Shown: positions 3,596 to 63,800 of the stretch, piece by piece
How positions within the stretch are numbered: position 1 is the first letter of the stretch
How the letters are laid out: every line of letters starts with the position of its first letter
NCBI GenBank assembly: GCA_000091205.1
Contig: AP006488.2
DNA: 64,000 nt
Source: Cyanidioschyzon merolae
Lineage: Eukaryota
Strand: one strand, 5' to 3'
Notes under the pieces: model-generated
Told to the model about the DNA's origin: nothing
The model's database searches: none
The model's input: only the letters and a program-made list of their open reading frames with translations
Position numbers and translations under genes: made by a program

Positions 3596-3812
3596 GATGT
3601 TCTTTGACAATACGGACACTACCAGGTGTGTCGGGGTTCGTGTCCCATACTCATTCTCTGCGACAAGACGAACACTACCAGGTGTCTCGGGGTTCGTGTC
3701 CCATACTCATTTTCTGCGACAAGACGAACACTACCAAGCGTCTCAAGGTTCGTGTCCCATACTCGTTGTCTAGAACAATACGGACACTACCAAACGCCTC
3801 AGGGCAAATGCG
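3596..3812. repeat. Tandem repeat of a roughly 57 bp unit in about 3.7 copies. Each unit contains 'GGGGTTCGTGTCCC', which resembles a tRNA B-box (T-loop).
   Basis: Direct reading shows units starting near 3607, 3663, 3719 and 3775, for example 'acaagacgaacactaccaggtgtctcggggttcgtgtcccatactcattttctgcg'. Confidence 0.8.
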
Positions 3813-4422
3813 CGGCGGCGCCTGCTGTACCCCAATCTATATGTGTTGTGGCTCGCACGTCACCGTGGACCGGAACATACCTGTCACTCACAGGAACGGG
3901 CGACGCATTGGTGCAGGTTTGGACCAGTGGACAGACACGATTATCTGCCAGATCGTGCAGACCCTGGTCCCTTAGCAGCCTTCTCTGGCAGTCAGAGCTC
4001 GCTACACTTGCGGAAACTGCTGGCCCGTTTCCGGCGATAGCAACGTCCGGACTGCGCGGTGTGCGAGCCCAAGGCCGTGAGCTGAACCTGTGCGGCTCGC
4101 TATACGCTGCGTGTACTGGAAACTCGCTCGACGCGTGTTTTCTTTGAGTCATAGCTCGGAATCGTGTTCTCTGCCTTGAACGAGCACAGGGACTAAAAGC
4201 CGATTCGGCAGCCTACAAGGCAGGATCGTCGCAGGTTTGTTCTGGGGTGCCACCGAGTGCTGGACGGCGATCTACGCACAGCGCAGTCCGCAGTGGTTAT
4301 ACGGCATAGTCGCTCTCTGTCGGTGGCCTAGAGAGACACGCATAACCAGGAAAAACCAGCGAACAGCACGTCTGCTCTCTACCGCACAGCGCAGCCCGCA
4401 GTTGTGGTAGTGGCGACGCGGC

Positions 4423-10749: not shown

Positions 10750-13700
10750 CCTCGGAGACACGCACATTGCTACCAGAGGAAAGACGCAATCTCGAAATCA
10801 CTGGCGGAGCAGCCTGCGCACCTGTGTCGAGAAGCCAGCTCCATGCAGGACAAACGTAACAAGCGCATTACCGTATGGGACTGTTTGCAGCATCGTCGGA
10901 CGTGTCCCTGGAGCACTGTAGGAACTGGAATCCGTGTACGCAGAAATATTGAACGATGGAAAGTCGTGATTTTCGAACATTTGCCCCGGAAAGTTGTTCT
11001 CGGTGTGTGAATGGATGTGGCGCTTGAGCCTTTCGTGATCGCGGGCCATACTGTGCCAAAAACTTGCTCCAGGCGAGGTTCTAATGCCGCCTTGCCTGGC
11101 CATTGGTATTGTTCCATCGGGAGTTTTCCACACTTCTTCACAATGCCCGTGCTGAATCCTAAAGGATTTCTTTGAGGAATCGCTCGACACGAGGACGTTG
11201 GACCCACCGGAAGCGCCAGGCATTTCCAGATGTTGATCGCTTCGTTCAAGCCTCGGTGTGCATAGTGCCTACGCGTATTGTTGCACGTGAAATCACCCCA
11301 TACCGAAAAGCAAGCATGTGGCCTTCGATTGCCTCGCCACCCGACGATCGCCCAACTTACAGTACACAATCACGTGCATGCTTCTCCGTTTCACTCGCAT
11401 CATTTACGGACCGATATCGATGTGGTCCTGTACTCGTGATACGTATACGTTGTTCCGAACTCACGGATGGAAATCGTACCGGATCGATTCCTGCACTCGT
11501 TACAGGCGCGACTCGAAGGAGCAAGAATGCGGCCCCTGAACTGAGCAGAATGTACAGCGCCATTGAGTATCACGAAACGACGCGACCTGTCGGTCAGTTC
11601 CTTTATGTTTTGCAGAAGTTTGCAAATGCATATCCATTGCCTCCGCACAGCAGCAACCGTTGGCGAAGCCAGCGCGGTGGCAGGTACTCCTGCCTAGAAT
11701 CGCATGCATGAAATGTTCGAACGCTAACGTGCGCTCTGAATGGTGTATCCGAACCACCCCCGGTGCTCGATACGGTTGCCAGAACCTCGAAACGGCTCCT
11801 GGTGCCGTCAATCAACTTGTTGGTATGACTATTGGCGTCCATAAAACCCGATTCTCGACGCCACCTAGCCCTAGAAAATATGAACAGATCGACCAGCATA
11901 ACATTCCGATTTTTGACTCCGTCCTTTTCACTTAGACGTCTGGCGACGGTGTTCGTAGTTCCTCAACCCGGGATCGACATCAAGGACCAAGTCTTGTTCT
12001 TCTTGTGCATTGAGCAATTTAAAGAACGTCGTGCTGTTAGACTCAGGACTAGGCCTCACGAAGCGCATGCAGACCGATATTCCGGCCGTTTCTATGATCC
12101 CTGTACACTTCTGTCCATTTCCCCGTGCAGACGAGAAGCCTGGAACGACCTCCGCCAGTGCTCTTCGTGAAGGTGTTCGATTCGCTCGCACATGCTCGCA
12201 GAGACCAGCCGTTCCCCATTATGGAGGCTATTCAATACAGAAGAATATTGTCTAGGGTGATGTCAAGGCGCTTGATGTGACACTCGGGGATCGCATCGAC
12301 CAGAAGCTTGAGGAGGCAAGGACGCCCGACTAGAGGAGCGAGCCTGCTATGCTCTGGAGCGCTCTATTCAGGAGCACTTGGTCCCGCACGATGGGCAGAA
12401 GAAAGGCATCCCGTTTCATTCGTTCTTTGGATACGACGTGCGTCGGTGCGGGGCAGAGAGCGACATGAAGCGCATAAACGAACCGAACCAAAGCTCGCAC
12501 TCGTTGCGACTCGGCTGCCGAAGGCGCCACAATATCAATCTTTTCCGTAACCGCCGGCTCGTCATTTGCCTTTGCCAACATCCCAAGAATACCTTCCGTA
12601 GGTAACATTTTTTGTATTCCAGTCATCTGAAGCCACAGTGGCTGCAATGCCTACGGTGTGCGCATCATGAGTCGCTCGCGATTGATCCGCATCTGGTTTA
12701 CAATACTGGCTTGATATTTTATGACATCCGCGCTGTAGACTTTTTTGAACGTCTGAGATGGCTCGGCAACGTCTCAAGGTACTCTGGGAAGCGTGTGTGT
12801 GCAAATCGCCGATCCCATGATCACGCTGTGTGTCACGTTCTATACAGAGCCTCAGCTATGGGGTCGCACGAAGGTTTGATCGAAATTTTCCGGGAAAATG
12901 AGTACGGCCAGCAGGCCGCTGCTTCCGAAGCTCTCACAAACTGTTGAACGATTAGGTACGTCGAGACGCGGGATGCCCAGCTTGCCGTGTGCGAACAGGG
13001 AGCTGCACGACCCTTACTGCAGTCCTTATACTAACTTTAGGAAGATTATTTCCGTCGACGTGGTTGAATAGAGAGGATTTGAAAATGGTTCAGGACTGAT
13101 GTTCCGCTCGGATCGTTTGCTTTCTGTTTTTCGTGGACCTCTGTTCCAATGGATCTTTCTCTTTTTTGGCCTGGGGTGAGTTGGCCTCCAACTCGACCAG
13201 GTGATCTTGGGCAGGGATATATTCGCTATGCACCATATCTCTAGTTTACGTTGGATTCAGACGCACTGGCTGCGCGCTGGGACTGAAACTTGCATTTCCT
13301 TCAAACGCATCTGCTATTCTCGCAGTGCTTTTTGGTTAGCTTCTTCGTCGCGAGCACACCAACGAACCGAAGCGCACCTTTGCGCTCCCTTCCGCGCTCG
13401 AGCAGCGGCGCGAAGCAGCAGTTCAGTGCTCGTGAACCTCGATTATGATTCATTGAAGACCGGTGACACGGATTCGAGTGGCCCCTCGGTTAGTATATCA
13501 GCCTGAGAATGACGTTCACGAATGATGCAGACGCCTTCGACCCGACTGATCCAGGGATATGAGCTGCCGCGAAGCGCAACACAACGCCAATCCCAGCTGG
13601 ATACCCCCAGACTTGTTTATCGCGATGAAGAGCGACACTTTCTAACAGCAGGCCAGAATCATCTGCGAAGGAGCAGCCACGAAGCGTGCTCCCACGAAGG

Positions 13701-21390: not shown

Positions 21391-22925
21391 AGAAAGTACA
21401 AAGAGTTGATTGGTAACTGCTATGCCGCTCCAAACTCACTCAGGTGCGTTATGGGGTACACTACGTAAACGAGTCGGTATGCGAGCGAACAACAGCGCGA
21501 GCGACTCAGTTTTCTCGATGCCAAAACGTTTAGATTGACCAAAGATCCCAGATTGCGGGATGCGTATTGATGATCGAAAAAGCGTCCACCATGCTGCAGC
21601 ACCCTACCTCCAAGTTCTATTTTTCGCACTTCCTTTCAGATATACTGGTTATTTCTTAGGTTCTGATTTGCACCTAACATGCCATGAGCACCCGTCCTGG
21701 CGCATATACCGCTGGTGCAGATGCATCACGGAGACGGAAAAGCTTTTCCAGCACCACCACTGAGGGCGTCGAATCGAGGAACGCTTCACCTGGTACGGAT
21801 TCGCAGTACATAGTCATGCTGAAGGCCTGCGAGCAGCGCAGACAGACCTACAGCCTGCGGCAGCGAGAAGCGGCATGCCAGGTGTCCACCGCGAACAGGG
21901 CGACGCTCAGAGGCGTCATACCCGCTGCGAGCTCCTGAATGAACTGCGTTGCGGACAAACTGCTCACATCTCACTACAGCATCCGTCAATTGCGGGGGCG
22001 GGAGGCGGGTATGCAGCGCTAGCCCGGGAGACTCGTTCAGCTCGCGGGACCTTCCGCTAGTACAGTGAACTTTTGACAATATGGAAACTTGTTCCCCATG
22101 TAACGTTTCTTGTGGTGGTGAAAAGAGATTCTAGTCTCGTTGCTATCTAGTGGTTAGTTTCTGTTCTTCTCTCTATAGAGCGGTCCGTACGTGCTCTCCG
22201 ATATCAGGAAGGTACGAAACGCGACGCGCATCTCGCCGTTACACATCAACGCTATCCTGATGATTAGCGTGTTTCTCTATCGTACAAGATGTGTTTCGGT
22301 TGAAGCCATAGCAAATTATCGTCTTTCGATTCAGCTGTGCTCCAGCCCTAGCATTAGCGTTTTCAAGTGCTTTTTCGTGGTTTATAGCAGAAGCGTTCGT
22401 AGCGGGTTCGTTTTCAAAAATAAAAAAAGAAAAGCCATGGGGAAGGAAATGGAGGATCCGGTAGGCTCGGCGCCGCCGATCGCCGAAAACAAAAACTAAA
22501 AACACTGCCAAGCCCAGAGGATCAAGACAAGGCGAATATGAAGAAATGGGAGGCTCGACCTCAAAAGCGACACAAAAGGCGACAGTACGACGAGAATGTA
22601 GTGAAAGCATTTCTTCTACTCAAGACCAAGAATCCCTACAAGCAGGAGTTGCGAAAGGCCATCAGAAACCGTGTCGCGTCGTACTCCATCAGTATCATTA
22701 AGGCTTCTTCAGGACTGATGCATAAGGTGAGCGAGACGTATCGCGACATCACGGACAGCAGAACAGTCGAGGTTCCGGGAGAATTCTTCAGCGAGGCCTT
22801 CATCAAGCACCTGCTACGTGGCACAGGGGAAACTTCGAGGAGAAATGAGCGAGTGTATGCCCTCCAGGAAAATTATATCGTCTAACGCTTGAACGGTACG
22901 ATATAAAGGTGAGCTCGAATTTTTA

Positions 22926-23100
22926 CATCTACGGGGCGGTGAAGTACACCACGAATCTGAAGAAACATTTGAGCATGAACCTAAAACGCTTCACGAAACG
23001 CTGCATCATATTTAAATCTACGGGGCGATGAAGTACACCACGAATATGAGGAACCATTTGACCATGAACCTCAAACGCATCATGAAACGCTCCATCTTTG
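22926..23100 (+). repeat. Tandem duplication of roughly 88 bp x2 inside A2, absent from A3.
   Basis: 'atctacggggcg(g/a)tgaagtacaccacgaat...' appears twice in tandem. A3 encodes this segment ('YTYGAMKYITNLKN') only once. Confidence 0.7.
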
Positions 23101-24599
23101 CGCTGTACCCGGACCTCTCACACAAAGGGAAATGGGCCACCATGAGTAGCATCACGAACGATCGACAGCATGAACAGGAGATCGAATTCGCCGGTGAGGA
23201 GGCATCGCCCAGTACCATGAATGAAGCTCCTGTGGTCCGTGCGGCTGTCCAAGAGCACCGCGGAGGTCTGGGGCTGGCCAATCCAGAAGAAAAGGTATCA
23301 GAGATGGAAAAAGATGCTATCCCCTGAACCTGCGGTATTTCGTGTTTTTGGAACGAAGAACTCGAACGCAAGGCGCATATGGATCTGGGCATGGAGGTAT
23401 GTTGAGAGTCTTTGAAACGGATGGCTGGGCTTCTGGAGAAGCGCTTCAACGTCGTTCCGTTATGAAAGATCATGTCGTACTGTGTCACAATCGATTCCAG
23501 AGTCCTTCATGGCATCATGAGGAAGATTTGTTCGTAGTTCGATTCAGGCAGGGAGAGGTTCACCGGCGAAACCGGGAGACTTGTCGGAAGAATATCTTTG
23601 ATTTCAAATGTCTTAAAAGGAGCACAAAAAATGTATTCAGGGGTACGATTGGGAGCGATGGACTACCCATACGTTTGCACTATCGGCGCTTGATGGCGGA
23701 TCGTACGACGCAGGAGGTGCAGAAGAACGACTTTGTCGTTGACGTGGATTCTGCGAAATCGAATGTCAAGACCACCGCAGCACCCAAGTGTGCGCAAGAT
23801 GGTATCGACGGCAACTTATGCCAGAAAGGCATGTGTCTTATAACGTTCGCGAGAGCGAGACACTAACGAGAATCAGGAATCATGAACATGAGGAAAAAAA
23901 GTGAGACTTCGAATACAGATGTGAAGAAGCACCTGGAAGTGATCAGCCAGGCCACTTGCCATGGAGCGGACTTGCAAGCCTCTGTAGCGTTCATGAAAAT
24001 TCGAGCTGCTCATAACGAGTTGCTGTGGGAAAAGTACTCAATGACCCGGCGAGTTCGCCAGCGTCTCAACCTGCACTACGGAAAGCAGCACGCACTTGCC
24101 AATTTCCTCCATGAGGTGAGCGCCCTCACGGAGTACATGAGTCTAAGCCTCCTAGCAGCATACGTAGCATGGCGCTTGGCCTTCCAAAAAAGGGATCATA
24201 CGCTCTCCATCGACGAGAGCGTACCAGGCGTGCGCACAGCGCGTTGTCACAATACCGATGGATGAGTTCCGAACGTCATGAATACAGCATGAGCTGGGAA
24301 GTACACTTCAGAGGGTCAAGACGGAATAGTGCCAGCGGAGCCCTGAGGATATTGAAAAAGCATGGAGCGCCGACAGAACAGGAAATGGCACGGAGGGCAA
24401 AAGTTCGAGGAATCCTTGCATTAGTGAGTGCAAGCGACAGCAAGAAACTGATGGAGTTTGCGAACCGGGACTTTAACGCCGCTATCAATATCAGACGATG
24501 TGCCGTGCCTGAGACGAGCGCCGAAGAGCTGAGACGATCCAACTTCATGGGCAGCCCCTCAAGGCGGATTTGTCGAAGAAGAAGTCGAAACCGATAGTA

Positions 24600-24705
24600 G
24601 GTGGCCGGTCGCAATAAGCCGGGAGGCGTCTGCACGTGGGCGGCCAGACATATGGTCTATGGCGAGCGGAGCCTAGCGCGCTGCTCGCCACCACCGTACA
24701 CCGCG
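24600..24705 (+). ncRNA. Candidate omega-RNA/fRNA scaffold: the conserved 3' tail of family A copy A2.
   Basis: 'ggccggtcgcaataagccgggaggcgtctgcacgtgg...ccaccaccgtacaccgc' is homologous to the A1 and A3 tails downstream of the TAG stop. Confidence 0.3.
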
Positions 24706-25568
24706 TGCAAACCTGCGCCGCTCGCAAGGCGTTCGTTGTTGACGGCCGTGGTCGAATCCGCAGAGGCATGCAACACCCCTCGATGATATGTCATCTGCAG
24801 GAGCAGCATCGTCGTACACAGTCGCATCGACGATAAATGAATCACCTGTTTGTCGGGAATGATGCGCTCTGAGGCGTTCATTTCCCTGACGCGTACCGAG
24901 CGCACCTGTTTCCCTTTGCGATACCGGACCAGGTTCAGTTCAAGCGAAAGCGACCCTGTACAGAGTACCGTTTGATCCCTCGGAAACTGGCCGCGTTTGC
25001 GCTCTCGGAAGAGACAGGTTCGATGATTCGTTTCTGTATCGTCTAGAAAAATCGATCCCGAGACCTGCGAATCACACCCAAGACCCTACTGAGTCCTGAA
25101 ATCGACGACGAAACGTACAGGAACACCGGTAGTGAGCGGCATCCGCTGGCGTCTGGTCAATTCTGGAAGCATACCAGGGAGCGCCTGTGCTAGCATCCAT
25201 ACATGCCCATATTGGATCCGATGCGCTAGCGTCACAATACGCGTCGTTTCCGATTCGGAGTTCCAGCTTTGAACATCGTGGATCACACTCGCGCTTCGGT
25301 GGTTTCCAGGGTTCTCGCCTGAAACGGCGCCGATGCAGCCGCACCGATGTCTTTCGATGCTCCTTCGAACAAGAATCATTTTTGAATATAATACTGGTGC
25401 TGTTTTTGTGTTGCTTATCGTGACCAAATCATCTGAGTGACATGCTCTGCCATGCGCGCTGCGCGCGCATCGAAATCGTCGATTATTCAATGCTGCATCA
25501 CGAACGCAGACCCGGCGCCATGTGTCGTAAGGAGGCGTCGCTGATCCACAAGCGCTGCACCTGGCGTA

Positions 25569-34699: not shown

Positions 34700-35210
34700 T
34701 GGTACCTGGCCACATTGCGTCCCTCGTCTGCAAGCCCTTTTTGCTCCGCTTAGCTCCTCATCTAACGGCATAAAGAAGCGCGCCATTTGAAGAAATAAGA
34801 AATCCAAGGGATGAGCTGCGGTGTACACTTCAGAACATCGAGATAGAGAGAAGGCAGCGGAGCGCTTCGCGCGATAGAAAAGTACGGAGAGCTGGCAGAG
34901 CAGCCAATGGTACTGAGTACTCGTGTTCTGGCAATCCTTGCATGGATGAGTTCAACAAGCGGCAATATATGCGAGGAGTTCGTGAAACGAGACTCCAACG
35001 TCACCTTCAGTATCTGACGATATGTAGTGCTGAAGAAGAGAACCGAGGAGCTGACGCGATACAGGTTTATGGGGCAGTCTCTCAGACTTGAAGTGCACAA
35101 GGAGAATCTGAGAACACGATACGAGTCTGCCGATCAAACAAGACTTGGAGGCGTCCTCGGATGGGTATTCATGCACCCCACATGATCGAGGAACTTTTTC
35201 GCTCCACTGA
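34700..35210 (+). mobile_element. Fanzor/TnpB-like family A fragment A4: a degenerate C-terminal region plus the tail.
   Basis: Plus-strand translation '...IEKYGELAEQPMVLSTRVLAILAWMSSTSGNICEEFVKRDSNVTFSI*...ENLRTRYESADQ' aligns to A1/A3 'EEIAKYGPL...KVRGLLALVSATSDGKKRMVLGNRDFNAATNVKRC...ESTRENF'. The tail 'aagacttggaggcgtcctcgga' matches 'aaggctgggaggcgtctgcacg'. Confidence 0.5.
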
Positions 35211-43008: not shown

Positions 43009-44110
43009 TCGTAGGTTGCTTTGGGATTCTCGGTCGTCTATTCGGAGTGGCTCGTTCTACACGACGTCGCTGCAACGAGTTCAAAGCAAGAAAGCAAGAT
43101 GATCTCCGACGTTCTGGAACAGGGGTTCGTAAAATAACCGAAATCTCTATACAAATCATATGCAAAAGTTATTCCAAGTTTCCGACTCGCTGTTTCAACG
43201 CAAGTCGTGTGCGCAGGGACACGCTGGCCGCTGAATTGCCGGGCAGAGAATCTCCACGTGGTCCTTTGAAGACTTGTTTTCCAAAACTCCTCCCTATTGT
43301 TCACTGAACTTGTCAAGATAAAAAATCGGTTCGTTTCGAAACACAATTTCTCTACGCCTCTTGGCTATCAGCGAAACGGCTTTCCACAGGCGCATCAAAC
43401 ATGTCGTGGGATATGCTTCCAGAGCCTGTCGTCTATTCTGTGTGCATGGAGAAGCATCTTGGACTCGGTGTTGAGTCATCGCAGTGATCGCTTACAGCAG
43501 AGATTGCGTCACCGCTTCGCATGAAGAAAACGTAGATGGACCGAAAATTCTCGACGTGATCTCTAGCCTGGATTTTCCTTTCGGTACTTGTTTTCTCGCC
43601 AACAACATCGCATCCAACAAAGCCCTGATCAAACGGGAAAACCTGAGCCTGTGCATACAGCGGACAGGCTGATCGCAGAGGAGATCGTCCAGAAGAGGTC
43701 CGTGCGCCAAGGGCACGGCATCGGGCGTGGAAACGCTGGAGGGCATCGAGGACAGCCTTCTCCGTCCGCCAAGCGCATGGACGATGCGATGAAGCAAATG
43801 CTTACGCAACACCGAACGAATACCCGAGGAGGAAGAGAAAATATTGGTATACGTTTGGGAGCACGTGAAGATGGCCAAGTGTGCCCTTTCCAAAGGCACA
43901 CCGAGGCTGTATACAAACGAGATGAAAATCGCCAGCGAGGCGTACATCGCAACTTCCGCTTGTGCTGGGAAGGCGTCGACAACAGTTGGAAGCCGCGAAA
44001 TCGGGACTTGAACGCTACCATAAACACGCTTCGAGTGCTGATCATGGGTCTACGGGGAACGCAGAGACTGGCGCATTGCAGTCGGCTACGAAAGAGAAAG
44101 AGTGGGAAAG
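43009..44110 (+). mobile_element. Small TnpB-like element, family B copy B3 (about 1.1 kb).
   Basis: ORF 43588..44193 contains 'CPFQRH...FRLCWEG...WKPRNRDLNATINTLRV' (Cys cluster plus RuvC-III-like motif). Nucleotide homology to B2 from 'gtag...gattctcggtcgt' through 'cgcattgcagtcgg'. Confidence 0.5.
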
Positions 44111-52108: not shown

Positions 52109-54674
52109 ACTTGATTTTTCAACCGCTCTTACGGAGCGTACGATACGAAGTGACGGTGCTCGATAGCCTGCAGCACACGAGCGACGTTAACGTTCGAGAG
52201 CGCAGCGGCTTCATCGCCGCCGTCGTCGACGCCGTCGTCAACGTCGTCGCCAGTTTGCGCTGCTGCATCCGGCGTGTTCGCTCCATAAGATTATCGTCCA
52301 GCGCCCGTGTCATTCGACGGTGGAGCGCTCGGGGCGGGCTGGTGGCGGCTCGCCCTTGAGCAGGTACAGAAATGGGTAAAAAGTTATCTGCTTGTCCCTG
52401 GCGATCTCCTTGCAGGAATCTCTTTTGTACTACCATGTACGTAAATATACAGTTTAGTTCAGTGCCGGTCCGTGGCGACGCGCATGCAGCGCCTGGGGCG
52501 GCACCCGCGCGCGCCTATCGAAGCGCGGGGCACCATTGATTGTTCAGCAGGTGCCCGACTCAAGTCCTTCCTGCTATCTTCATGCGGAGCTAGTGCATTT
52601 CTAGTTCGCTGTAACGCAGCGTATTCGTGCGTGGATTCGGGCGAGAATTTGAATAACGCTCTCCTGGCCACTTATTTTTTATTCGATACCTGGAGCGTTT
52701 CAGCAGAGTGCCCACACTGCATGCGGTGCAGTACCCTCGAAGGTTCGCTCGATACGAAGCCGCTGGATGCTCCAGAAACACAACACTTTTTCCGGATGCT
52801 GGGCGAGACCTTCAATTCTTGGTGCGCAAAGTGCTTGCGCGATTATGGCTCGTAGACTCATGCCATGGTAAGTCGCTTACTGTTCAATGCCTTGCCATCT
52901 GAGGTCCGGTCAGCTTCGCGTGAGGAATCTTTTGCATGCGGCGCTGTTTGGCGGTCTTCTTCTTTACCATTTTGAATCGTGGGACTGTGCTCGTGATTCG
53001 TATATGTCGTCCTGAACGCGTCAATGAGCATCGTACAGAATCAAGTCCTGCACTTGTTGTACGCTTTCGTCGAAGGACCAGGAGCGCAGGGGCCTTTGCT
53101 TGCTCGTCACCGCATCCATCGCGAGCACGCCTACGGGCCGATGCGCGTCTTCCCGTTTCGTCCTGTGCACGATCATAGAAGCAGCGCGGGCGTCCAAGGT
53201 CGGTGAAGGTAGAGAGCGACCTGTCCGAGTATGGTATCAAGAGGCGGACGAATCATCTATAGATCGATGAATGTGAAAATGGCGTTTCGTGTCCATAAAG
53301 ATTTATAGGACTGTGTTGAACAAGCGCTAATAGGCTGGCATGAAGAGCAGCTGAACGCCAATCTAAGCTGCATACTCCTCGACCGATTGGAGTGATGGAA
53401 ACCGACATTGCCCGAGACCCGGACAGGAGAATGTTCGCAAGATAAACATGAAACGCTCTTCGACGAAGGATGACGTGTTCGTCGATGTCATCCGTATGAT
53501 GATTTGGAGGCGAACAGACGATTGCATCGAGGCTAGGGTTCATGTTGTCGTCATGGGAGCATGACCCTTCTTTACGAACAGCGGTTTGAACCCCCATCCC
53601 TGCTTACCCATATACTGGTCTAAAGATTCTCCCTAATAACGTCTCATCGAATGGATCAAACACCCTTCGCTTCTGTAAAAAGCGTTCGCGTTTCGGTACC
53701 TACTCGATCATGTCTACTCCAACGCGCGCAAGCGTCCCAATGAAGCGTACGTTTCCCCTTGTCTGTGCGGGTCCGTCCGTGCCCGTTCGTATCCAAGGCA
53801 CGGAAACTTGACATCCTCTGGCTTTTTTGGTGATATTTTTTGCAGAACGTTTGGAGTGGAATGTATTGACAAGGAGACGATCGTGTTGGTATGGCAGAAT
53901 ATGTTCTGTTTTGAGTACACGACGTTCAGAATGAGAACGATGAGAAGGGTGCTTTATCAAACCCGCTAACCGAAGAATGGCGAACGTCTACAATAATGGC
54001 CGTCTTCCGCAGGCAACGAGTGACACGACCAAGTCTCTTCGCGACGTTTCTCCGATCTTCTGGAACCATTCATATAGTTGAATACTCCCAGAAACACGAA
54101 TGAACATGGGAAGTGGCGTGCCGGTACAGGTGTACCAACATGCACTGTTCTGAATGTCAAGCTTCTCGACCACTGACACCTCCGATGCATACGTTCTGAT
54201 AGGGCATCGGTGGCCGTCAGTGTTCGTCGCCCATATTCTCGAAATCCACTGCCAAGCACCAGAACAACAACATCGCCAACAGGACGTTTCTCGATACCAA
54301 GTATTGTCAAGCGTGCATCCATGGACCGCGTAACGCGTGCAGGCCGCTCCTGAGACGACTCACAGTTCGTACAAGCGCACTCCTGACGCCATCGGAGGTA
54401 CTCAAGGAGACGACCTCGTCACAAGTTAAACTTATAGGACCCGAAAATCTGCGTCAGGGTGTATGACGCTCCGCTGGAACCCGAAGAAGCGTTCTTAAGG
54501 AACGCGCAACGCAAGCCACTCCCGGAAGTCATGCGAGCACTTGACAGACCCAGACTAGGCGGCACGTCGCGCCACCAGCGGTATCGCAACATGAATGCCC
54601 AAGCAGCGTGCGTCAACTTATCCCTGAACAACCAGCCAAAAACGACATTCGGTTGCCTCGGCTTGCAAACATCT

Positions 54675-57602
54675 TTACGCCGACCCGGACTTGTCCTCGA
54701 GGTCGCCTTGGAGCTCAACCATCACCTGAGACTTGCTGCGGCTTTTTCCTCGCTGTGCTTCCCACTCCTCTTGTCGACGACAGAATTCAAGCTGTTGCTC
54801 GCGAGCAAGTTTTTCCAGCTCCTCGATCTCGCGCTGTTCGACTTCGCGACGTTGCCGTACGGCGTCGGCCTGACGAGCGGCAGCAGCCTCCCGCTGCTGC
54901 TGGCGTTGCTGCAGCTCTTCGTGACGGCGCCGGGTGCGCTCCTGCGCTTCAGCCAGCAGCCTACGTGCATATGCCAAGCGATGTAGGCACCAGCTGCTAT
55001 TGGCGTGCGCAGCCTCCGCGGTAACCACTTTGTTTGTCGGACCAGCAAGCGATGGTTGCCATTGTCGAACGACATCGGTAGACACGGAACGTTGCATCTG
55101 ACGGAGGCTCATTTCCATGGCTCGGAAACAACCGCCAGCGCATTCCAGGAGAACCGTAGCTACCTCCGGGTCCGTACCGTGATCAGGACGGCTGAGTCGA
55201 ATGGAAGACTCTTGAGCAAGGGTCAATGACAAGTCGAACCATACCGACAAAGCGGAAGGTTGCAGGTGCAGAGCGCGCTGCAGGGTCTCCATGCAAGCCG
55301 CATACTGGCCAAGGCCGTAGTGTGCAGCTGCGAGTGCCATCAAGGCCCCAGCATCGTACGGGGCGCTTTGAAGACGATCATCAAGAAGACGTATGGCGTT
55401 TCGGAGCGAGGCCACGACAGCGGAACCACGCGACAAGTGCACAGCTATGAGATTCGCCCGAGCACATTCCATGATTTTGGGTTCCGCCGAAGCAACTGCA
55501 CCTAACTGGGCCACCGCACAGAGGGCCTCCTCGGCTTCACTCAAGAGATTCATTTCACGGAAGTAGACTCCGAGAAGTTGCATCGCAGCGACATTATCAT
55601 GCGCGCGCTCTAGAACACCCAATAGCAGGTTTCCCGCAGCTACGAGAAACTTGTGACGGCGGCTCTGATGATGGCGAGCAGTCGCTCGTGCCAAGGTTAC
55701 ATAATACGCAGCAGTGACGAGATCGCAGTAATTTCGAGCTTGGTATCGCGTTTCCAAGTCCTTGCGTAGTTTCTTTCGACGGATAAAGTACTCGAACCAT
55801 GCTTGTGCCTCGTCAACACGGCCACGAGACTGTGCCAAAAAAGCCAAAGCCGTCACAGCTCGCGGATTCGGGAGCACTTGACGATACAGGTCCTCGGCAG
55901 TGTTCAAGTTCCGGTGAAGGTGCTCGGCTAAGACGCCTAGACGCAGCGTGGCATCCTCGTACTCAGGAAATTGTTCATGGATCGTGCGGTAGATGCTCTC
56001 GGAGCGCGTTAGATCGCCCAGTGACTCAAGCAGCCGCCCGAGGTTGTAGCTCAGGGTCAGGTGCCACGGACGCTTGCGGATGAACGCCACCTCAGGGAGC
56101 CAGGTTCGCAACGACAGCCCCTGATCGCCGGTAACCAACTGAAGCGCCCGCTCCAAAGCAATATATGCCTCGTTATACTGACCGAGGCGTACTCTCAAGG
56201 CAGCAATGTTGTTCCAGACAATCGGATCATCCCAGTGTTTCCCCAAGCGCGAGTAAAGCTGCAGCGCGAATGCCGGATCCAGTCGATCCATCAGTTCCGC
56301 GTACACAGCGAGCGCCTCTGCCGGTAGCTGCTCCAAATCCGTGCCCTGCAGTAACTCGAGTGCATGCTGCTGCGCCTGCTCGAGTGCCTTGCGTGACGCC
56401 TGCTCATCCGCTGCTTTCTCCTGGAGAATAACAGCAGAAAGCGCCCGGAGATAGGCATCCAGCCGAGCGGGGAGCGCACGCGACCCCTGTTGGCGAACCC
56501 GCTCTATTTGATCCATTGCTTGATCGAGCGCGTTTCTCCGCAACAGCGAATACGCAAGTGCCAAGCGGGCAACTGCCATCTCAGTCCAATGCTGGATACT
56601 GGTACCGTAGTGCGTTTCAGCCTCAATCCAGTCGCCGCGTCGTTCTCGCCAGCGACCGAGCAGGTATTCGGTACGTGCTGCGGCCCTGTGTGTGGCGGCT
56701 TTCCAGGTGTCCGGTTCAACTGCTCCCAGGAATCGAAACGCACGCTCTCGATGCTCGTGTACGATCGCATTACGGATTCGAAGCTCTTGGGGATAGAGCA
56801 CGAACGCCTCGCGAAGCAGCTCCTCAGCGACAGCACGTGCAGCTGCGGTATCCTTTGCCTCCGACGATGGACCGTGCGTCGGGGCCTCGAGAGCTCGCAA
56901 GCACACCCAGAGGCCCAGTAACGTATCTGGATGTGGATATGCGTCGTCTGCATCCGAATAGTGCATAACGCTCCGATCGATCCGCTCGCACTCCATCGAA
57001 AGACGCCAGCTGAGCACGCGTGTAGCGTCGAGCAACTTGCCGGCGGCAGCGAGCGCGTATGCGTATGAACACCACCATTCCGCTGGTGATGCCTCACCGT
57101 ACATCCAGAGCGCATCCGCATACCAGGCTGCAGCCTGCTGGGCTAGGTGCGGCTCGATGACGCTCCGTTCGAGGAGCACCCGCCCGAGGCCAACTCGAGT
57201 CAAGAGCAGAACAACAGGGCTTGTCTGCGGTTGGACTGCACGAGCGCTCGCTTCGAAGAGTTTCTGTGCCCCCAGGGTGTCCTCCTGAGCGAGGTGAACG
57301 AAGCCTTGCCAGACTGGTGCTAACTGCGCAGCTGCACGGTCGGTTTGAGCGAGTAACGAGGGCTCGAGCTCGACCTGCTCGGCTGCCAGCGTCACACCGA
57401 GTGCAGCCTCCAGCACTGCCGCAGCTTGAGGCCATGTTGAGCGTGCGGACTGCACAAGACGCACGGCTTCGTCCCACTGACGCTCTGCACAGGTGTTCAG
57501 GAACCTGGAACGCCACTGGCTCCAGTTCGTCAACTGCTGTTCGGGCACGGCGACCTCGACGGTGCTGCTGCGTGCCTCGACGCCCGCACGAGGTGCGTTC
57601 AT
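54675..57602 (-). CDS. Large TPR-repeat protein, about 975 aa, with a C-terminal charged coiled-coil tail (Ctr9/Paf1-complex-like architecture; family assignment uncertain).
   Basis: Repeated TPR-like helices throughout. C-terminus 'RRRHEELQQRQQQREAAAARQADAVRQRREVEQREIEELEKLAREQQ'. The track start at 57611 is TTG; the first ATG is near 57602 ('MNAPRAG'). Confidence 0.65.
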   Translation of the reverse strand: MNAPRAGVEARSSTVEVAVPEQQLTNWSQWRSRFLNTCAERQWDEAVRLVQSARSTWPQAAAVLEAALGVTLAAEQVELEPSLLAQTDRAAAQLAPVWQGFVHLAQEDTLGAQKLFEASARAVQPQTSPVVLLLTRVGLGRVLLERSVIEPHLAQQAAAWYADALWMYGEASPAEWWCSYAYALAAAGKLLDATRVLSWRLSMECERIDRSVMHYSDADDAYPHPDTLLGLWVCLRALEAPTHGPSSEAKDTAAARAVAEELLREAFVLYPQELRIRNAIVHEHRERAFRFLGAVEPDTWKAATHRAAARTEYLLGRWRERRGDWIEAETHYGTSIQHWTEMAVARLALAYSLLRRNALDQAMDQIERVRQQGSRALPARLDAYLRALSAVILQEKAADEQASRKALEQAQQHALELLQGTDLEQLPAEALAVYAELMDRLDPAFALQLYSRLGKHWDDPIVWNNIAALRVRLGQYNEAYIALERALQLVTGDQGLSLRTWLPEVAFIRKRPWHLTLSYNLGRLLESLGDLTRSESIYRTIHEQFPEYEDATLRLGVLAEHLHRNLNTAEDLYRQVLPNPRAVTALAFLAQSRGRVDEAQAWFEYFIRRKKLRKDLETRYQARNYCDLVTAAYYVTLARATARHHQSRRHKFLVAAGNLLLGVLERAHDNVAAMQLLGVYFREMNLLSEAEEALCAVAQLGAVASAEPKIMECARANLIAVHLSRGSAVVASLRNAIRLLDDRLQSAPYDAGALMALAAAHYGLGQYAACMETLQRALHLQPSALSVWFDLSLTLAQESSIRLSRPDHGTDPEVATVLLECAGGCFRAMEMSLRQMQRSVSTDVVRQWQPSLAGPTNKVVTAEAAHANSSWCLHRLAYARRLLAEAQERTRRRHEELQQRQQQREAAAARQADAVRQRREVEQREIEELEKLAREQQLEFCRRQEEWEAQRGKSRSKSQVMVELQGDLEDKSGSA

Positions 57603-57780
57603 TAAAGCCAAAGACTAGACAAGACTTAAAGAACCTCCTGCAAAGAGCGGAATCACAGACTCGAGAACCGGAACAGAGTACCAAACAGCTGTGAAGGAAC
57701 AACCCAGGAGTGTCCACGGAAACGCCTTTATAAGGACGTGGAGCACACACCACCACCGCCGTTCTAAGTCGAACGACGTC

Positions 57781-57875
57781 GGGCGTGTACAGTAGTGGCG
57801 AGAAACCCGCCTTGGACAAGAAATCTTCCACTGCGGTGTAGACGCCTTCCAGCCCTTTGAGAACGGCCACCCACT
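57781..57875 (-). ncRNA. Candidate omega-RNA/fRNA scaffold: the conserved 3' tail of family A copy A3.
   Basis: 'tgggtggccgttctcaaagggctggaaggcgtctacaccgcagtggaagatttcttgtccaaggcgggtttctcgccactactgtacacgcc' lies downstream of the TAG stop and aligns nearly base-for-base with A1 over 600-676. Confidence 0.3.
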
Positions 57876-58734
57876 ACTGCTTCCAAATTTCTATCATATA
57901 GTTAAACATGAAGAGGTGTCCAATGAAGTTCTCTCTTGTCGACTCTGGAGGTCTTTTCTCCAGCACCGCACATCTCCTTATATTGATTGCGGCATTAAAG
58001 TCTCGGTTCACAAACTCCATACGTTTCTTGCAATTGATTGTACTTCCTAATGCAAGTAGCCCTCGAACTTTCGCCCTCCTTTCCATTTGCTCGTCTGTCA
58101 GCGGTCCGTACTTTGCGATTTCCTCAGGGCTCCGTTGGCACTTTTCCATCTCGACCCTATGAAGTATACAGTCCAGTCCATGGTGTATATACGATGTTCG
58201 AAACTCATCTACAGGTATTGTAACAAAACGCCTTGCCCACTCCTTGTACGTTCTTGTCGTTGGAGCTGGCGTAGTCCATTTTTTGGGTCTTCTAGCGCCC
58301 TGCTCCGTACGCTTCTACTAGCCTCTGATTTTCATCCTCCTTCAGGGCACTCAACTGATTGAAAAAATTCGCGAACGCCCGCTGCTTCCCACAATACAAA
58401 TTCATTCGCAAACGAGCCCACGGGGGTTGGTATACTTCTCCCACAGCGCATCCCAATGCGCCATGCGAACTTTCATGAACTCCCGAAAAGCTTCAAAGTC
58501 CGCCCCTCGGCTCGTCACCTCGCTCAAAGCTTCCAGGTGATCCTTCGTTCCTGAATTCCATGTAACGATTTTCTTCCTCGCATTCATGGTGCCCGATTCC
58601 CGATTGTATCTCGCTCTCGAGAACCTCAAAAGACGCATGTCTTTCTGACGTAAGTTACCATCAGTCCCATCTTCCGCACACTTTGGTACAGAGATGGTTA
58701 TGATATTTGTATTCCCAGGGTCCGCGGCAACGAC

Positions 58735-59012
58735 AAAGTCGTTATCTTCCACTTTCTGGGTCGCAGGATCCGCCTCCTTCTTTTCTTCATCCTTCGCCGC
58801 GTCAAAGACAAAGTCGTTATCCTGCACTTTCTGGGTCGCAGGACCAGCCTCCTCCTCATCTTCATTCTTCGCCGCGTCAAACATAAAGTCGTTATCCTCC
58901 ACCTCCTGCGTCGCAGGACCAGCCTCCTCTTTGTTTTCTTCATGCATCGCCGTGCCAACGACAAGGTCGTTATCTCGCACCTCCTGCGTCGCAGGACCCG
59001 CCTTCTTCTCAT
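58735..59012 (-). repeat. In-frame 72 bp tandem repeat (4 units) inside the A3 ORF, encoding acidic 24-aa repeats.
   Basis: 'EEAGPATQEVEDNDFMFDAAKNEDE' appears 4 times; the last unit runs into the RuvC-I strand. A2 has a single copy. Confidence 0.8.
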
Positions 59013-60899
59013 CTTCATGGTTCGCCGAAGGCGGAACTGGCCGATCTTTCTTCAACCGCCGATAGTGTATACATAAGGCCACTCCATCGGTTTCGATCAC
59101 CCCCGTGAATACCTTTTGTTTGCTCACGTTGAGACGTTTGAAATCGAAGATACTCCTCCAGTACGTCTCCCGTTTTTCACCGGAGAATTACTCCCTGCTG
59201 ACATCGAACTCGGGACTGATCTCCCTCATGATGCCATGAAGGACTGCGGAGTCGGTAGTCACAAAATGTGACTTGATCTTGCACACTGGAACCACGTCGA
59301 AGCGCTTACCCATTCGGAAAGCCTTCCGTCTCTCCTACTCTTCATTTGTCTCTTCACTCAGCTTCATCTCTGCCTTGCGTTCGAACTCTCGCTCCAAAAA
59401 CACAAAATAGCGCACGATGAGGCGATAGTATCTTTCCTTACCTTTTTTTCAACACTGATATCTTTTCTGTTGGATTCGCCAGCCCCAGTACCGCACGGTG
59501 CTCTTGTATAACCGCGCGGATGACGGAGTCCTCATTTGTGCTCCTGCGTGACGTCTTCTTGTCGACGAATTCGACCTCACCTTCATGCTTGCGATCTTTC
59601 GTGATGCCATTGATAATCGCAAATTTTCCATTGCGAGACAGACCCGGGTAGAGTGCAAACACGGCGCGTATCATGAAACGTTCGAGGTTCGTTGTCAAAC
59701 GGTTCTTCAGGTTCGTAATGTACTTCATTGCCCCGTATGTGTAAATATCCTGGTCACCCTTGTATCGAGTACCATTGAAGCTGTAAAAGGGATGTTTTCC
59801 GTGGAGGGCATGCACCCGCTCATTTTCCATCCGCGCTTCCTTTGTACCAAGCATCAGCTGACGAATAAACTTCTTATCGAAAAACTCGTCTGGAATCTCG
59901 ACCGTTTCCATGTGCGTCACGTCGCGATACATCTCTCTCACCAAATGCATCAGTCCTGACGACGCCTTGACGATACTCTTGGAGTATGACGCAACACGTT
60001 TTTCGATAGCGTCTCGCAACTTTTCCCTGTAGGGATCCTTGATATGTCCAAGAAGAAAGGTTTTCACCACCATCTCGTTGTACAGCCGTCTTTCTTGCCG
60101 CCTTCGACGTAGGGCCTCTCCCTTTAGGTCCTTCTTCGCTTCCTTGTCTTCTGGACTCGGCACAGTTTTCGTTTTTTTCTGGTAGTCGGCGACCCTCGGC
60201 CTCCAGGATCGTCGACTTGCTTTTTCATAACTTTCCTTTTTTAGTTTTTTTTTGAAAAAGAAAGCTCCTGGAACGCTTCTGTTATATACTGCGAAAAAAC
60301 AATTGAATACACATGTTTGAGGTTTGAGACTCAAATGAACTGAAAACTATACTTGGCTATGAAGTTAACGAAAATACAACTTTTACATTAGAGCTACATG
60401 CTAGATATCAAGATCACGTTTTCCTTCGACGGCGGCATTTTTTTCATAAACAAAACGTTTCCTTTGGCCAGCGTTCTCCGACTATGCGCGTTTCTCTTTT
60501 CTTACTTTTTTGTGTTTTCCAATGTGCGGTGAAGTATCCATCAAACAGCCTACTTCCAAGTTCCATTACCTATACTTCTTCTAGGATATTCTGGTCGTTT
60601 CATACGTCCTATCGGGTGTGCCTCGTACCTGCCTTTCTGTATTCGCCTTTGCACCTTAAATGCTGGAGCAGATACCTCATAGAGACAGAACGGCGTTGCC
60701 GTACCACAGAGGGCGTCGGCTCAAGGCGTGGTTCACCCGACGTAGAATCGGGTGTCGTTGTCTGTTTGTGCTCGGACAGTCTGCGGATGCAGGCCTGTCT
60801 TCGCTGTACGACACGCTGGAGACACTTGGCTGTTAGGATAAATCGAGGGAGTCGCCTCCCTCCTTTGTGATCATGCATGGAATGCGTTGTCGTCGGTTG

Positions 60900-63800
60900 G
60901 CAATGCGGATTTGTGCTTGACACCCACCACAGTGGGTAGGCGCAGAAAGCGCACTGGCCCCGTGTTCGCATCCGATCCGCTGGACCTTCCGCCCAGAAGG
61001 TAGCATGTGAGTTTGTTCGCCATTAATGAGCGCTGAGGCTCCGTTAGCGGACCATCAGTTGCCAGTGCTGCACTCAAAGTGAGTGTCCGGCCTTCGCCTA
61101 TCACGGCGATGTCCAGCTGCTGCTGTCCTTCAAGGAGCTCGCTGCGCTCCTGTTTCCAGTGCGGGCACTATAAGCCTAAATATGTCAGCGTCTCGGGGGT
61201 CTGGTCTCCAGAGCAGGGACAGTGTGATTCCCAGTGCGATTCCGGTGTTTCCGTACGGCTTAGAGACGGTGCTAGTCAGAAACCACCAACGCGGATTTCG
61301 GCGATCCACTGGGTACCTCGAGCAAGTCCCGGGAATTCCAGCACCCACTACCAGTACTTGCATGTGTATGCTAGGGTGTAGTTCCGGATAGGGTCAAGCC
61401 GGCGTTACTTGCGCGACTGGTTCCATGTCTACATTCCCGTACTGTTGTTTGGACCGTTCGCTTCAGGCGACGGGAGAATTCTATATTTCTGGGGAACGAT
61501 TGGGTAGCGTGTTTTCGCGTAAGAGGCGCTTCAGCCAAATCTGCGCTGATTTCATCCAAGTGTTCTAGCGGTGCGTTGGGGTCTGCATGAAAATCCGACT
61601 GAACCAGGTGTACATGGTGGGCCCTTTGGCCCACACACGTGCCTGGCAGCCTGCTGCTATCGCTTCTATTGAGGGTATTTGGAGTTCAAGTCCGAGTGCC
61701 AGGCAGGTTGGTTGCTCTGCTCTGCATTGAGCATCCAACAGCAACAACGAGTCGCATTGCCCTGTTGGCGGCTATCTGCAGACGTGAGATATTTGTGTGG
61801 TTCATGCCGCACCATTCAGCACCCCAGGTCGCAGGCTGGATGATACACATCCTTAGCGCCCTGGTACGAATTGCTAAGGGGATAGAGGGGTCGGATGGGA
61901 ATGGGCGTGCGATCGCTGTACGTCTATGCATCTTGGCGATCATCTCGTCGATGTGTGCCTTTTCGTCGAGCGTCGGCGTGAGACAGACCCTGCAGATAGC
62001 GATATTTTTCCACGATTGGAATTTCCTGATTCTGCAACCGCCACGAGCGATTGCGAATGCTCTGCGAGTCTCCATGGATGAGCATGACGCCGCACTTCGA
62101 TGCTCCTACGTTCATCTTCCAGCGATCGACCCAGGTGCTGACTTGTTCCATGCTAGCCGCAAGCGTTTCCGGGGCGGATGCCAACAGCACGACATCGTCC
62201 GCAAGTAGAAGGCCTGCGAGGCGGTTCGTATGTGAGGGCTCCTCATCGGGCATCTCCACAGTCTATCCACGGCACCTCAAGCCCGTATTGTCTGCAGTTG
62301 TTCAGCAGATCGTTGATGAAGATGTTGAAAAGGAGCGGGGATGCGGGGTCGCTCTGTCGCAGTCCACGGCGGATTCTTATACGAGGGATTCATGAGCCGT
62401 CGCCCAGTCGGATGCGCATCCATGAGTCTGCATAGAGCGCCCGGAAGAATGCTAAGCACTTTTCGGAGACTCCGGCGCGTTCCATCTTGAGAAATAGAGC
62501 CTCATGCGGGACCGTGTCAAAGGCCTTTTGAAAGTCGATGAAGCATACATGAGGATCGGTGCGACCTCAACACTCCTACATACATCAGGGATGTATGCTT
62601 CTTCGAACATGCGTTGGATGAGCTCCAGAAGGCGTTTGCCCAGGATTCTGTCAGATTCATCTGGTATCGATGGTGTCCCTGTTGTCTCGTCTTTTGGGGT
62701 CGCCAGTTTCATCCACTCCGTCGCGATACCGTCGATGCCAGGTGTTTTGCGGTTGCTTGAGCATAGCAGGGTCCGAACAGATTCAGGCCAGAAGATTGGG
62801 TCGTTCCATACCGGTACCGGTTCGAGGCGCGGTAGTTCTGCAGCATATTGGTGCCGATAGATTCGGTTTTGGCAGTGCCCAGTTGCGTCTTCATGCAGCT
62901 CTGTCCCGTGGTCTGTGCAGGCCTCATTCACTGAGGCACTCTCCGTCCTCAGCGCTTCCTCATAAACGATTGGTGTGAGCCCCAGGCACTTTTTTGGTGG
63001 GTCAAGTCTCGATCGGATGTAGCGCCAGGTCTCATCTTCGTTGGTGCTCTCTAGCATAGATTTCGCCAGGGCGGCGATTTTGCGGCTTCGATCCTCTCGT
63101 TTGTCTTCTCTGGAAAGTTTCTTCTCTCTTTTGATAGCTTCCTCATGTTGTGCCTGTAGCGCCGGTAGCGCTGCCTTCGCTTCCATGTCTCCGGCGTTGG
63201 CGCGTATGGCGGTGCGGTTGACGATCTTATAGAGTCGGCGGTATTCATCAATCCGAGTTTTGGTACGTCGTTTCAGGAACTGAGGTTTGCAACTGTTGTG
63301 TTCTGGTCCAAGCAGTCCCAGCTCTCTGGCGGTCTTCTGATTCCCAGCTACAAACTCGCGTGCCAATTGGTCTAAAGATTTGCATGCACGGCTTTTCGGA
63401 TCTACAGCGCTGTGAGTAGGTGACTGGGTTTGGCGACGGCTTTCTTGAGTTCCTGCTCGGGTGCTCTTTCGGGGGATCACTCATGATGGGCTCGTTTGGG
63501 AGTTCTTCTTTCTATTCTTCTGTTTTTTTCTTGCTGGTCTTTTTCTTCTTCGGGCTCTTTCCTGAGCTGCATTCTCTGCTTATTTTGCATCTAGGTGGAT
63601 CATGAGGTTTCTGTGCCTCCTTCTCCGTATCCCGTTGGGTCTCTTTCGCTATTGTAGATCCCTCTATTGTTGTCTCTTCTTCGTTAATGTACTGATAATT
63701 CGTTATCTTTTCTCGGAAGGCTGCAAGTGACTTGTTGGTTAGCATCCGGGCTTGGTATGTTGAGGGTGCACTTGCTGGTAACCCTTGCTGTGCGCTCTGA

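Follow-up and report, generated by a model that had tools for sequence, protein, structure and literature searches.

Chromosome 6 of the red alga Cyanidioschyzon merolae carries a repeat that resembles an RNA-guided nuclease gene. Is it a young family that might still work, or what is left of an old one? The initial annotation of the 64,000-nucleotide stretch analysed here (the window, to which all positions refer) described four recently amplified copies of a TnpB/Fanzor-like gene, and held that such a layout is not expected among ordinary nuclear genes. We conclude that the window repeats are almost certainly dead copies of CMe-1A, a C. merolae transposable element with a Fanzor1 gene. The assignment is based on host, size, absence of terminal inverted repeats (TIRs), copy divergence and protein family, matched to the Repbase family by its description. 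CMe-1A has been on record since 2013, and its presence here is not unexpected: the Fanzor1 family of C. merolae was already known, is not new and is not active in the window.

Setting and family membership

The repeats sit among ordinary host genes. Eight ORFs of the window are exact matches to C. merolae 10D proteins (CMF014C and its neighbours) on chromosome 6, and blastn and tblastn located six Fanzor1 remnants scattered between these genes (Table 1). The four loci listed by the initial annotation are indeed homologous, but four is not the full count: copy B and a short internal fragment have to be added. The motifs it quoted were all found where it placed them, whereas the limits of A2, A3 and A4 had to be redrawn. 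The string NRDLNAT at 43999-44019 was also checked and proved to be a chance match.

Table 1. Fanzor1 remnants, their parts and the repeats beside them, in window coordinates
Feature	Position	Strand	Remarks
A1, 3' third; window edge cuts the element	1-700	+	One frameshift; ADEFRTS and NRDFNAA kept
LVVAYGATRWK in A1	136-168	+	
Copy B, older divergent remnant of a second Fanzor1 lineage	11133-12800	-	27-35% identical to P0051; DVDPG kept; RuvC-III Asp replaced by Gly (HRGLNEAINIW)
676-bp repeat module (modD) on the 5' end of A2	21510-22185	+	A2 plus module: 21510 to ~24745
A2, full-length core, heavily decayed	22181-24745	+	17 frameshifting indels, 8 stops
RuvC-III NRDFNAAINIRRC in A2	24463-24501	+	Intact
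A3, 3'-terminal 230-280 bp only, RuvC-III region (KRDSNVT)	34813-35095	+	Internal stop codon
Short internal Fanzor1 fragment, ~50-60 aa	52939-53130	-	Contains a stop codon
A4, Fanzor1 core pseudogene	57757-60438	-	84.5% identical to L001 5726-8434
A4 3' tail, beyond the premature stop codon	57757-57873	-	Consensus ORF end plus ~55 nt non-coding
RuvC-III motif NRDFNAAINIRRC in A4	57970-58008	-	Asp aligns to SpuFz1 D606; weak PF07282 match
VDEFRTS, relocated RuvC-II Glu	58192-58212	-	Aligns to SpuFz1 E541
Canonical RuvC-II position, LVEAYGAGR	58295-58321	-	No catalytic Glu; frame differs from neighbours
A4 ORF fragment 2, 241 aa	58402-59127	-	IETDGV strand, acidic 25-aa repeats, RuvC-I
RuvC-I motif VVAADPGNTNIITIS	58690-58734	-	Asp aligns to SpuFz1 D383
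Tandem repeat within the ORF, 75 bp x 4.0	58722-59027		Codes for acidic 25-aa repeats immediately before RuvC-I
A4 ORF fragment 1, 298 aa	59438-60334	-	Helical N-terminal (REC-like); 80% identical to P0001 residues 1-240
X, LINE-like/retroelement-like repeat, 1.27 kb, 5'-truncated	60438-61703	-	A-rich 3' end borders A4 on its 5' side

Intact relatives outside the window are the loci L001 and L003. We took L001 5671-8418 (2748 bp) as the reference core, of which A4 covers ~56-2748; the 3' end of A4, which we placed where conservation falls off among 43 non-redundant copies, carries an uncertainty of up to ~25 nt. The smallest of the four loci, A3, gave no nucleotide match to A4 when one was sought; it shows ~66% identity to L001 and, as protein, 43% to P0001.

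Aligned over 95% of its length, the stitched A4 translation shows 66% identity to P0001, an intact protein of 752 aa, with E reported as 0. This match excludes chance similarity. Altogether 62 homologues of the stitched protein were found, together with 249 related stretches on metagenome contigs. Most of the metagenome copies are likewise broken, and therefore there is no intact gene set for selection tests. A profile built from 13 homologues, P0001 among them, reached 5587 cluster representatives at E ≤1e-3, and its sole matches in the PDB were the Fanzor1 chains 9cf0 (PpFz, 1.6e-15), 8gkh (SpuFz, 5.4e-8) and 9cer (GtFz, 3.4e-4). For structure, the protein modelled was the homologue P0051, 38% identical to the stitched A4 protein, and not the window sequence itself. 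With its AF2 model (pLDDT 70), the top seven Foldseek matches in the PDB were SpuFz, PpFz and GtFz (E 2e-15 to 1e-13, TM 0.47-0.66), whereas Cas12 and Fanzor2 came lower in the list, at E 2e-4 or weaker.

Judged by sequence profile and modelled fold, the window repeats encode a member of the Fanzor1 (eukaryotic TnpB-like) protein family, with a predicted WED-REC-split RuvC fold. The proposal of a TnpB/Fanzor-like family in a eukaryotic nuclear genome is thus borne out, in the form of Fanzor1; comparison with Fanzor profiles and structures had been set beforehand as the refuting test, and both the PDB profile search and Foldseek returned Fanzor1. The Pfam families suggested for the same purpose were of less help. 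When eight ORF pieces and as many homologues were scanned, PF07282 stayed below threshold (E 0.04-0.5, 11-14.6 bits; gathering score 26.3) and PF01385 gave no match.

What of the RuvC-II acid, for which the initial annotation could find no clear candidate? It was right that the canonical site has no Glu, but published work had already settled the question: in Fanzors the Glu in use stands downstream of the canonical RuvC-II position, which has none (PMC10530073). By alignment, the "missing" acid is this published rearrangement, with the Glu placed in VDEFRTS. In the homologue alignment, P0051 D422, E593 and D662 are invariant, and they fall on residues 777, 935 and 1000 of the 8gkh chain, which are SpuFz1 D383, E541 and D606, all three of them metal ligands (PMC10432273). 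The codons of the triad are present in A4 and A1; A2 has lost the Glu (SSERHEY). Bao and Jurka also included in their Fanzor1 motif a C4 zinc finger between [TS][TS] and RD (PMC3627910). In our alignment, CxxC...CxxC is absent between DEFRTS and NRD in C. merolae-type proteins and in their relatives P0051-P0062. The number of acidic 25-aa repeats differs from copy to copy, and the same protein alignment shows 0 to >4 of them in homologues.

Ends of the core and routes of spread

How would an intact element work? Its core, for example that encoding P0001 in a related hot-spring alga, would be ~2.75 kb long and would encode one intron-less protein of ~750-790 aa, with a basic NLS-like N-terminus, a helical REC region, a WED strand and a split RuvC nuclease. 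The predicted catalytic triad is the D of DPG, the relocated E of VDEFRT and the D of NRD. If the protein behaves like its homologues SpuFz1, PpFz1 and GtFz1, it would bind an omega-RNA that is made from the element's 3' end and whose 3' part would run into flanking DNA and serve as the guide. The complex would then cut matching DNA flanked by a TAM, which may favour retention or homing of the element. We infer the omega-RNA, the TAM and the transposition route.

Conservation at the 3' end of the core extends ~55 nt beyond the consensus stop codon, to L001 position 8418, and is then lost. The corresponding tail of A4 is where one would look for the scaffold of a Fanzor omega-RNA, and it holds the palindromes GGCG..CGCC and CGTCGTTCGA-CTT-TCGAACGGCG. 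Two 3' sub-types exist. Three hand-drawn hairpins had 75% of cells paired, but 474/500 shuffles scored at least as high and there was no covariation support. For 33 aligned 3' ends, RNAalifold returned a consensus of -2.66 kcal/mol with a single weak helix, a test of little power on such decayed copies, and an Rfam search of 57500-60700 at E up to 1 returned no match.

At the 5' end, cores are bordered by four recurrent classes of repeat (X, upA, upB and modD). The 676-bp module modD occurs in many metagenome loci, either beside cores or apart from them, and probably corresponds to the TE-N2_CMe-like 5' part of CMe-1A, as we infer from the description by Bao and Jurka. On the corresponding side of A4 lies element X instead. 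X is outside the Fanzor1 core and not part of it. Its ORF had no match in Pfam or the PDB, and an RVT_1 segment was found in more distant X relatives only. This recurrent junction, in which the 5' end of the core meets a LINE-like element or one of three other modules, is a modest lead on how the element moves.

One conceivable route of spread is transposition in trans as DNA, with the core as a non-autonomous element of rolling-circle or HUH type (Helitron2-like or IS200/605-like). There are palindromes close to both termini (GCGCTC-AGT-GAGCGC at the 5' end and the CTT-centred one at the 3' end), and both 3' sub-types retain a foldable stem, though in shifted register. No terminal inverted repeats were found within A4, and the TSD search around X+A4 and modD+A2 gave no shared 7-mer, a search of low power at such divergence; both results would suit an element of this type. 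Moreover, Fanzor1 occurs inside Helitron2 elements of Chlamydomonas (Bao and Jurka, PMC3627910). However, Helitron2 is defined by asymmetric terminal inverted repeats, and these are absent: the best inverted match between the consensus ends scores 14 against a shuffle mean of 14.9, and Helitron2 termini were rejected on this result. The hairpins also lack covariation, and the four 5' neighbour classes leave the actual 5' limit of the mobile unit blurred. We consider an HUH-type route unlikely.

A different idea starts from X. We give little credence to the proposal that Cyanidiales cores spread with the LINE-like X and without a DNA transposase and, as a separate matter, that the intact environmental P0001 type, a Fanzor1 without zinc finger from a thermoacidophile, works as an RNA-guided nuclease adapted to heat and acid. 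The routes of an X-linked spread may be read-through, 3' transduction or targeting of the 5' end of the core by X. If true, either X-linked spread or an active P0001-type nuclease would add to a family whose transposon class has stood as "unknown" since 2013.

In its specific form, this idea has the cores hitch-hike on X by read-through transcription and 3' transduction, which would make them retrocopies. In A4, and likewise in several diverged loci from metagenomes, the core directly follows the A-rich 3' end of X, X lengths of 175, 194, 562, 1039 and 1267 bp are what 5' truncation would give, relatives of X carry the RVT_1 segment, and the cores are without TIRs and TSDs. In most cores, however, the 5' neighbour is upA, upB or modD, and X can also point the other way, as in L001-L003. 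The core lacks an A-tail at its 3' end, and no TSD flanks X+A4. A comparison of the two 3' ends scored 15 against a shuffle mean of 15.2; SINE-like dependence, in which X and core would share a 3' tail, was rejected on the same score. Hitch-hiking of this kind is highly improbable.

Decay and age of the window copies

The initial annotation credited the copies with an ORF layout of ~600-700 aa, 85-90% nucleotide identity and recent amplification. None of this survived measurement. No window copy has such an ORF, and none is continuous: the reading frame of A4 is in pieces, with ORFs of 298, 241 and 91 aa and further unlisted ones. Relative to intact L001, A4 has three indels that are not multiples of three, ~3 stops in the reference frame and a frame change near the start codon. 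Because of their frameshifts and stop codons, the window copies are unable to make the protein. A4 is 82% identical to A1 and 70-72% identical to A2, and identity among the copies ranges from 66 to 82% overall. Copies that are this dissimilar and this broken are old relics, and their amplification was therefore not recent. All window copies are pseudogenes.

Could at least one of them nevertheless be a functional or domesticated Fanzor gene, with introns, programmed frameshifts or sequencing errors behind its apparent breaks? A4 has kept all three catalytic motifs, and some genomic copies of CMe-1A are still intact according to Bao and Jurka (PMC3627910). However, A4 would need at least 3-4 frame changes and has ~3 stops, the 17 frameshifts and 8 stops of A2 go far beyond this, and the positions of the breaks differ from copy to copy. 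Among the 62 homologues of stitched A4 there is no NCBI C. merolae protein. The C. merolae genome is also finished and nearly intron-free. A functional or domesticated window copy is close to refuted.

As a discovery, these relics are of small value, and the main worth of the analysis lies in its corrections: the repeats are dead relics and not a young family, and their RuvC-II arrangement is normal for Fanzor. Fanzor biochemistry and structures have been available since 2023-24. The intact relatives without a zinc finger, found in hot-spring metagenomes and belonging to a thermoacidophile lineage, are a further lead that could interest seekers of compact heat-tolerant editors.

Comparison with known systems

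There is next to no chance that the repeats are prokaryotic TnpB/IS200-IS605 insertion sequences brought in by contamination or recent horizontal transfer: a weak PF07282 (Cas12f1-like TNB) match at the RuvC-III motif and hairpin-like palindromes at both ends without TIRs, as in IS200/IS605, would fit this origin, but the copies are flanked by intron-less eukaryotic genes on chromosome 6 of C. merolae, Fanzor1 and not TnpB gives the best matches in sequence and fold, the protein of ~750 aa has a large REC region, and there is no adjacent tnpA gene. With TnpB of IS200/IS605 (e.g. ISDra2) and Cas12f, the window family has in common the RuvC fold with a RuvC-III of DRDxNAAxNI type; a guide RNA derived from the element's 3' end would be a further property of the family. 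TnpB differs in its canonical RuvC-II Glu, its zinc finger, its length of ~400 aa, its associated TnpA and its prokaryotic hosts. Cas12f is distant from the P0051 model (Foldseek E 6e-4 to 4e-3), and the Pfam match is not significant.

The Fanzor1 proteins of known structure, SpuFz1 (8GKH), PpFz1 (9CF0) and GtFz1 (9CER), are closer. They share with the window family the fold and the order of WED, REC and RuvC, as predicted from the homologue, as well as the relocated RuvC-II Glu, a basic N-terminus and carriage by transposable elements. However, sequence identity is only 12-15%. The CxxC...CxxC zinc finger between DEFRTS and NRD is missing from the window family, which has variable acidic 25-aa tandem repeats inserted before RuvC-I. 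The elements and hosts differ too: SPu-1 has 33-bp TIRs and TA TSDs while the C. merolae element has no TIRs, and the host of the window family, unlike those of SpuFz1, PpFz1 and GtFz1, is a thermoacidophilic red alga.

The closest system is CMe-1A itself (Mobile DNA 4:12; Repbase), from which, as far as the published description allows likeness to be judged, the window elements show no essential difference. Both belong to the same host genome and consist of ~3 kb with a single Fanzor1 ORF; both are without TIRs, with TSDs undetermined, and high in copy number, their old copies being ~80% like the consensus. Bao and Jurka (2013, PMC3627910), who classed CMe-1 under Fanzor1, reported ~150 copies of CMe-1A in C. 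merolae, so that the high genome-wide copy number predicted from the window was correct. The 5' ~635 bp of CMe-1A is common to a separate repeat, TE-N2_CMe (PMC3627910), and in the window the 676-bp module joins A2. Where Bao and Jurka described one Fanzor1 family in C. merolae, the window adds a second, much older lineage, represented by copy B.

Identity and decay of the Fanzor1 copies

We found that the family call made in the initial annotation from raw sequence was correct and that the repeated coding sequence is that of a Fanzor1 nuclease. The stitched translation of A4 retrieved 62 homologues. The closest of these is P0001, whose 752-aa ORF is intact; the 49-kb metagenome contig encoding it bears eukaryotic genes as well. 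Of the Pfam profiles proposed as a check, PF01385 gave no match and PF07282 only a sub-threshold one, at the RuvC-III motif. However, the only PDB chains matched by a profile of 13 diverse homologues form three sets, each of them Fanzor1: Parasitella PpFz (1.6e-15), Spizellomyces SpuFz (5.4e-8) and Guillardia GtFz (3.4e-4). Structural comparison agreed. The homologue P0051, which is intact, was modelled with AlphaFold2 (mean pLDDT 70); in Foldseek this model matched the same three nucleases best (TM up to 0.66, E from 2e-15 to 1e-13), and matches to Cas12 variants and Fanzor2 were far weaker. The family comprises 5587 cluster representatives at E <= 1e-3.

Within the window, this is an old, locally dead transposon family. 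The quoted motifs each lie where they had been placed, and sequence comparison bears out the homology of the four loci A1-A4. However, the continuous 600-700 aa ORF ascribed to them is present in no window copy. A4 retains three ORF pieces (298, 241 and 91 aa), with further stretches shifted to other frames, and measured against an intact relative it carries three frame-breaking indels, about three stops and a frame change at its start. A2 has eight stops and 17 frame-breaking indels, and A1, which extends past the window edge, has one frameshift. No pair reaches the proposed 85-90% nucleotide identity, as A4 shares 82% with A1 and 70-72% with A2. A3, taken for a full-layout copy, does not match A4 at the nucleotide level; its homology is seen mainly via protein comparison. 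Nor is four the total, since two further remnants are present; the longer retains DVDPG and has Gly in place of the RuvC-III Asp.

Fanzor1-related features and adjoining repeats, in window coordinates
Feature	Position	Strand	Remarks
A1	1-700	+	Fanzor1 copy
modD	21510-22185	+	676-bp repeat module joined to A2 5' end
A2	22181-24745	+	Fanzor1 copy
A3	34813-35095	+	Fanzor1 copy; only 230-280 bp tail remains
A4	57757-60438	-	Fanzor1 copy
Older remnant	11133-12800	-	Second Fanzor1 lineage; 27-35% identity to homologues P0051/P0052
Isolated fragment	52939-53130	-	~50-60 aa, with stop codon; shortly downstream of DDX21-like helicase gene
Relocated glutamate motif of A4	58192-58212		VDEFRTS
Tandem repeat	58722-59027		75 bp, four copies, inside Fanzor ORF; encodes acidic 25-aa units directly before RuvC-I
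X	60438-61703	sense on minus	1.27-kb repeat ending in A7-8; abuts A4 5' side; also metagenome locus L001, 4401-5668

The RuvC-II glutamate

Three acids are invariant in the alignment of homologues: the D of DPG, the E of (V/E)(D/E)EFR(T/S) and the D of NRD. By HMMER alignment they correspond to residues 777, 935 and 1000 of chain 8gkh_P, which after subtraction of the 394-residue MBP offset are D383, E541 and D606 of SpuFz1, the magnesium ligands in the SpuFz1 structure paper (PMC10432273). Jiang et al. reported that in Fanzors the glutamate of the canonical RuvC-II site is generally missing, that a conserved glutamate further downstream serves in its place, and that mutating the latter abolishes cleavage (PMC10530073). 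Given this relocation and the alignment to E541, LVVAYGA is the expected inert canonical site, and the glutamate of VDEFRTS is the predicted catalytic RuvC-II residue. The initial annotation found no clear acid at the canonical site; this apparent oddity is the Fanzor norm, with the glutamate moved to VDEFRTS. This relocated glutamate is retained in A4 and A1 and is gone from A2 (SSERHEY).

Element anatomy and 5' neighbours

When set against 80 metagenome loci, the window copies share a conserved, Fanzor1-encoding core of 2748 bp (L001 5671-8418). The core starts at the palindrome GCGCTC-AGT-GAGCGC. Across 43 non-redundant 3' ends, conservation stays at ~0.8-0.9 up to the palindrome CGTCGTTCGA-CTT-TCGAACGGCG and then drops sharply, ~55 nt downstream of the consensus ORF stop. 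We looked for terminal inverted repeats in A4 and the consensus ends and found none. Asymmetric inverted repeats of the Helitron2 type are likewise absent from the element ends. No TSDs were detectable around X+A4 or modD+A2, though the divergence of the copies leaves this search little power. Within the ORF, P0051 and A2 lie at the low extreme, with no 25-aa acidic unit or one, and at the high extreme other copies have more than four, making the array a length-variable disordered insert before RuvC-I. The 10-25 nt past the terminal palindrome are GT-rich and TTTGTTGTTG-like, for example at window 24733-24750 and 690-705 and in L044, L058, L073 and L033; these flanks fall into a few shared classes, independent of the 5' module classes, and may contain the true element end or reflect a preferred target.

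By analogy with the Fanzor family, a guide RNA should derive from the element's 3' end. Rfam gave no match for the element. RNAalifold on the 3' ends yielded only -2.7 kcal/mol, and three candidate hairpins were mostly paired, with shuffled controls scoring equally high, but these tests have little power, given that almost every copy is a pseudogene decaying independently.

Four recurrent classes of sequence neighbour the core on its 5' side: upA, upB, modD and X. Elsewhere, modD occurs detached from cores or ~49 bp past a core 3' end (metagenome loci L030, L040), and it contains a stretch ~70% identical to X positions 107-313. L001 preserves the 255-aa ORF of X intact; the window copy of that ORF is broken. 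More distant relatives of this ORF match the last (C-terminal) third of the RVT_1 reverse-transcriptase domain (E ~3e-6, just under the cut-off), so that X appears to be the 3' portion of a non-LTR retroelement. X portions of differing length adjoin the core 5' side in A4 and several diverged loci; in L001-L003, X lies there in opposite orientation. L003 carries a single X (899-2169) between two inverted cores (1-849, 2172-4916), both with their 5' ends facing it. These X-core junctions could reflect simple nesting of transposable elements, or they could reflect targeting. Co-mobilisation could also produce them, but X and core 3' ends share no similarity and no TSD was detectable around X+A4.

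Genomic setting and relation to CMe-1A

The repeats are flanked by eight ORFs that match annotated C. merolae strain 10D proteins at every residue, including CMF014C, CMF016C, CMF026C, a DDX21-like helicase and a TruB pseudouridine synthase. The host genes are eukaryotic, long and intron-less, consistent with C. merolae. Locus tags indicate chromosome 6, and their numbers (CMF014C and upward) suggest that the window lies near one chromosome end. Fanzor-related sequence occupies ~8-9 kb of the 64 kb, several-fold above the genome mean by a rough estimate (~150 copies x 3 kb in ~16.5 Mb).

A Fanzor1 family in C. merolae was already known. Bao and Jurka (2013) described one, CMe-1A, with ~150 copies, each ~80% identical to a ~3 kb consensus and some still intact; it has no TIRs, its TSDs are undetermined and its transposon class is given as unknown (PMC3627910). 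Its 5' 635 bp are also present in a separate repeat, TE-N2_CMe (PMC3627910), which is probably our modD. Whereas those authors listed a single C. merolae Fanzor family, the remnant at 11133-12800 belongs to a second, much older Fanzor1 lineage. Compared by published description, CMe-1A and the window element agree in host, size, divergence and architecture, and on this basis the window copies are assigned to that known family. The Fanzor1 motif of Bao and Jurka includes a C4 zinc finger, whereas in the homologue alignment this C. merolae-type clade is without one.
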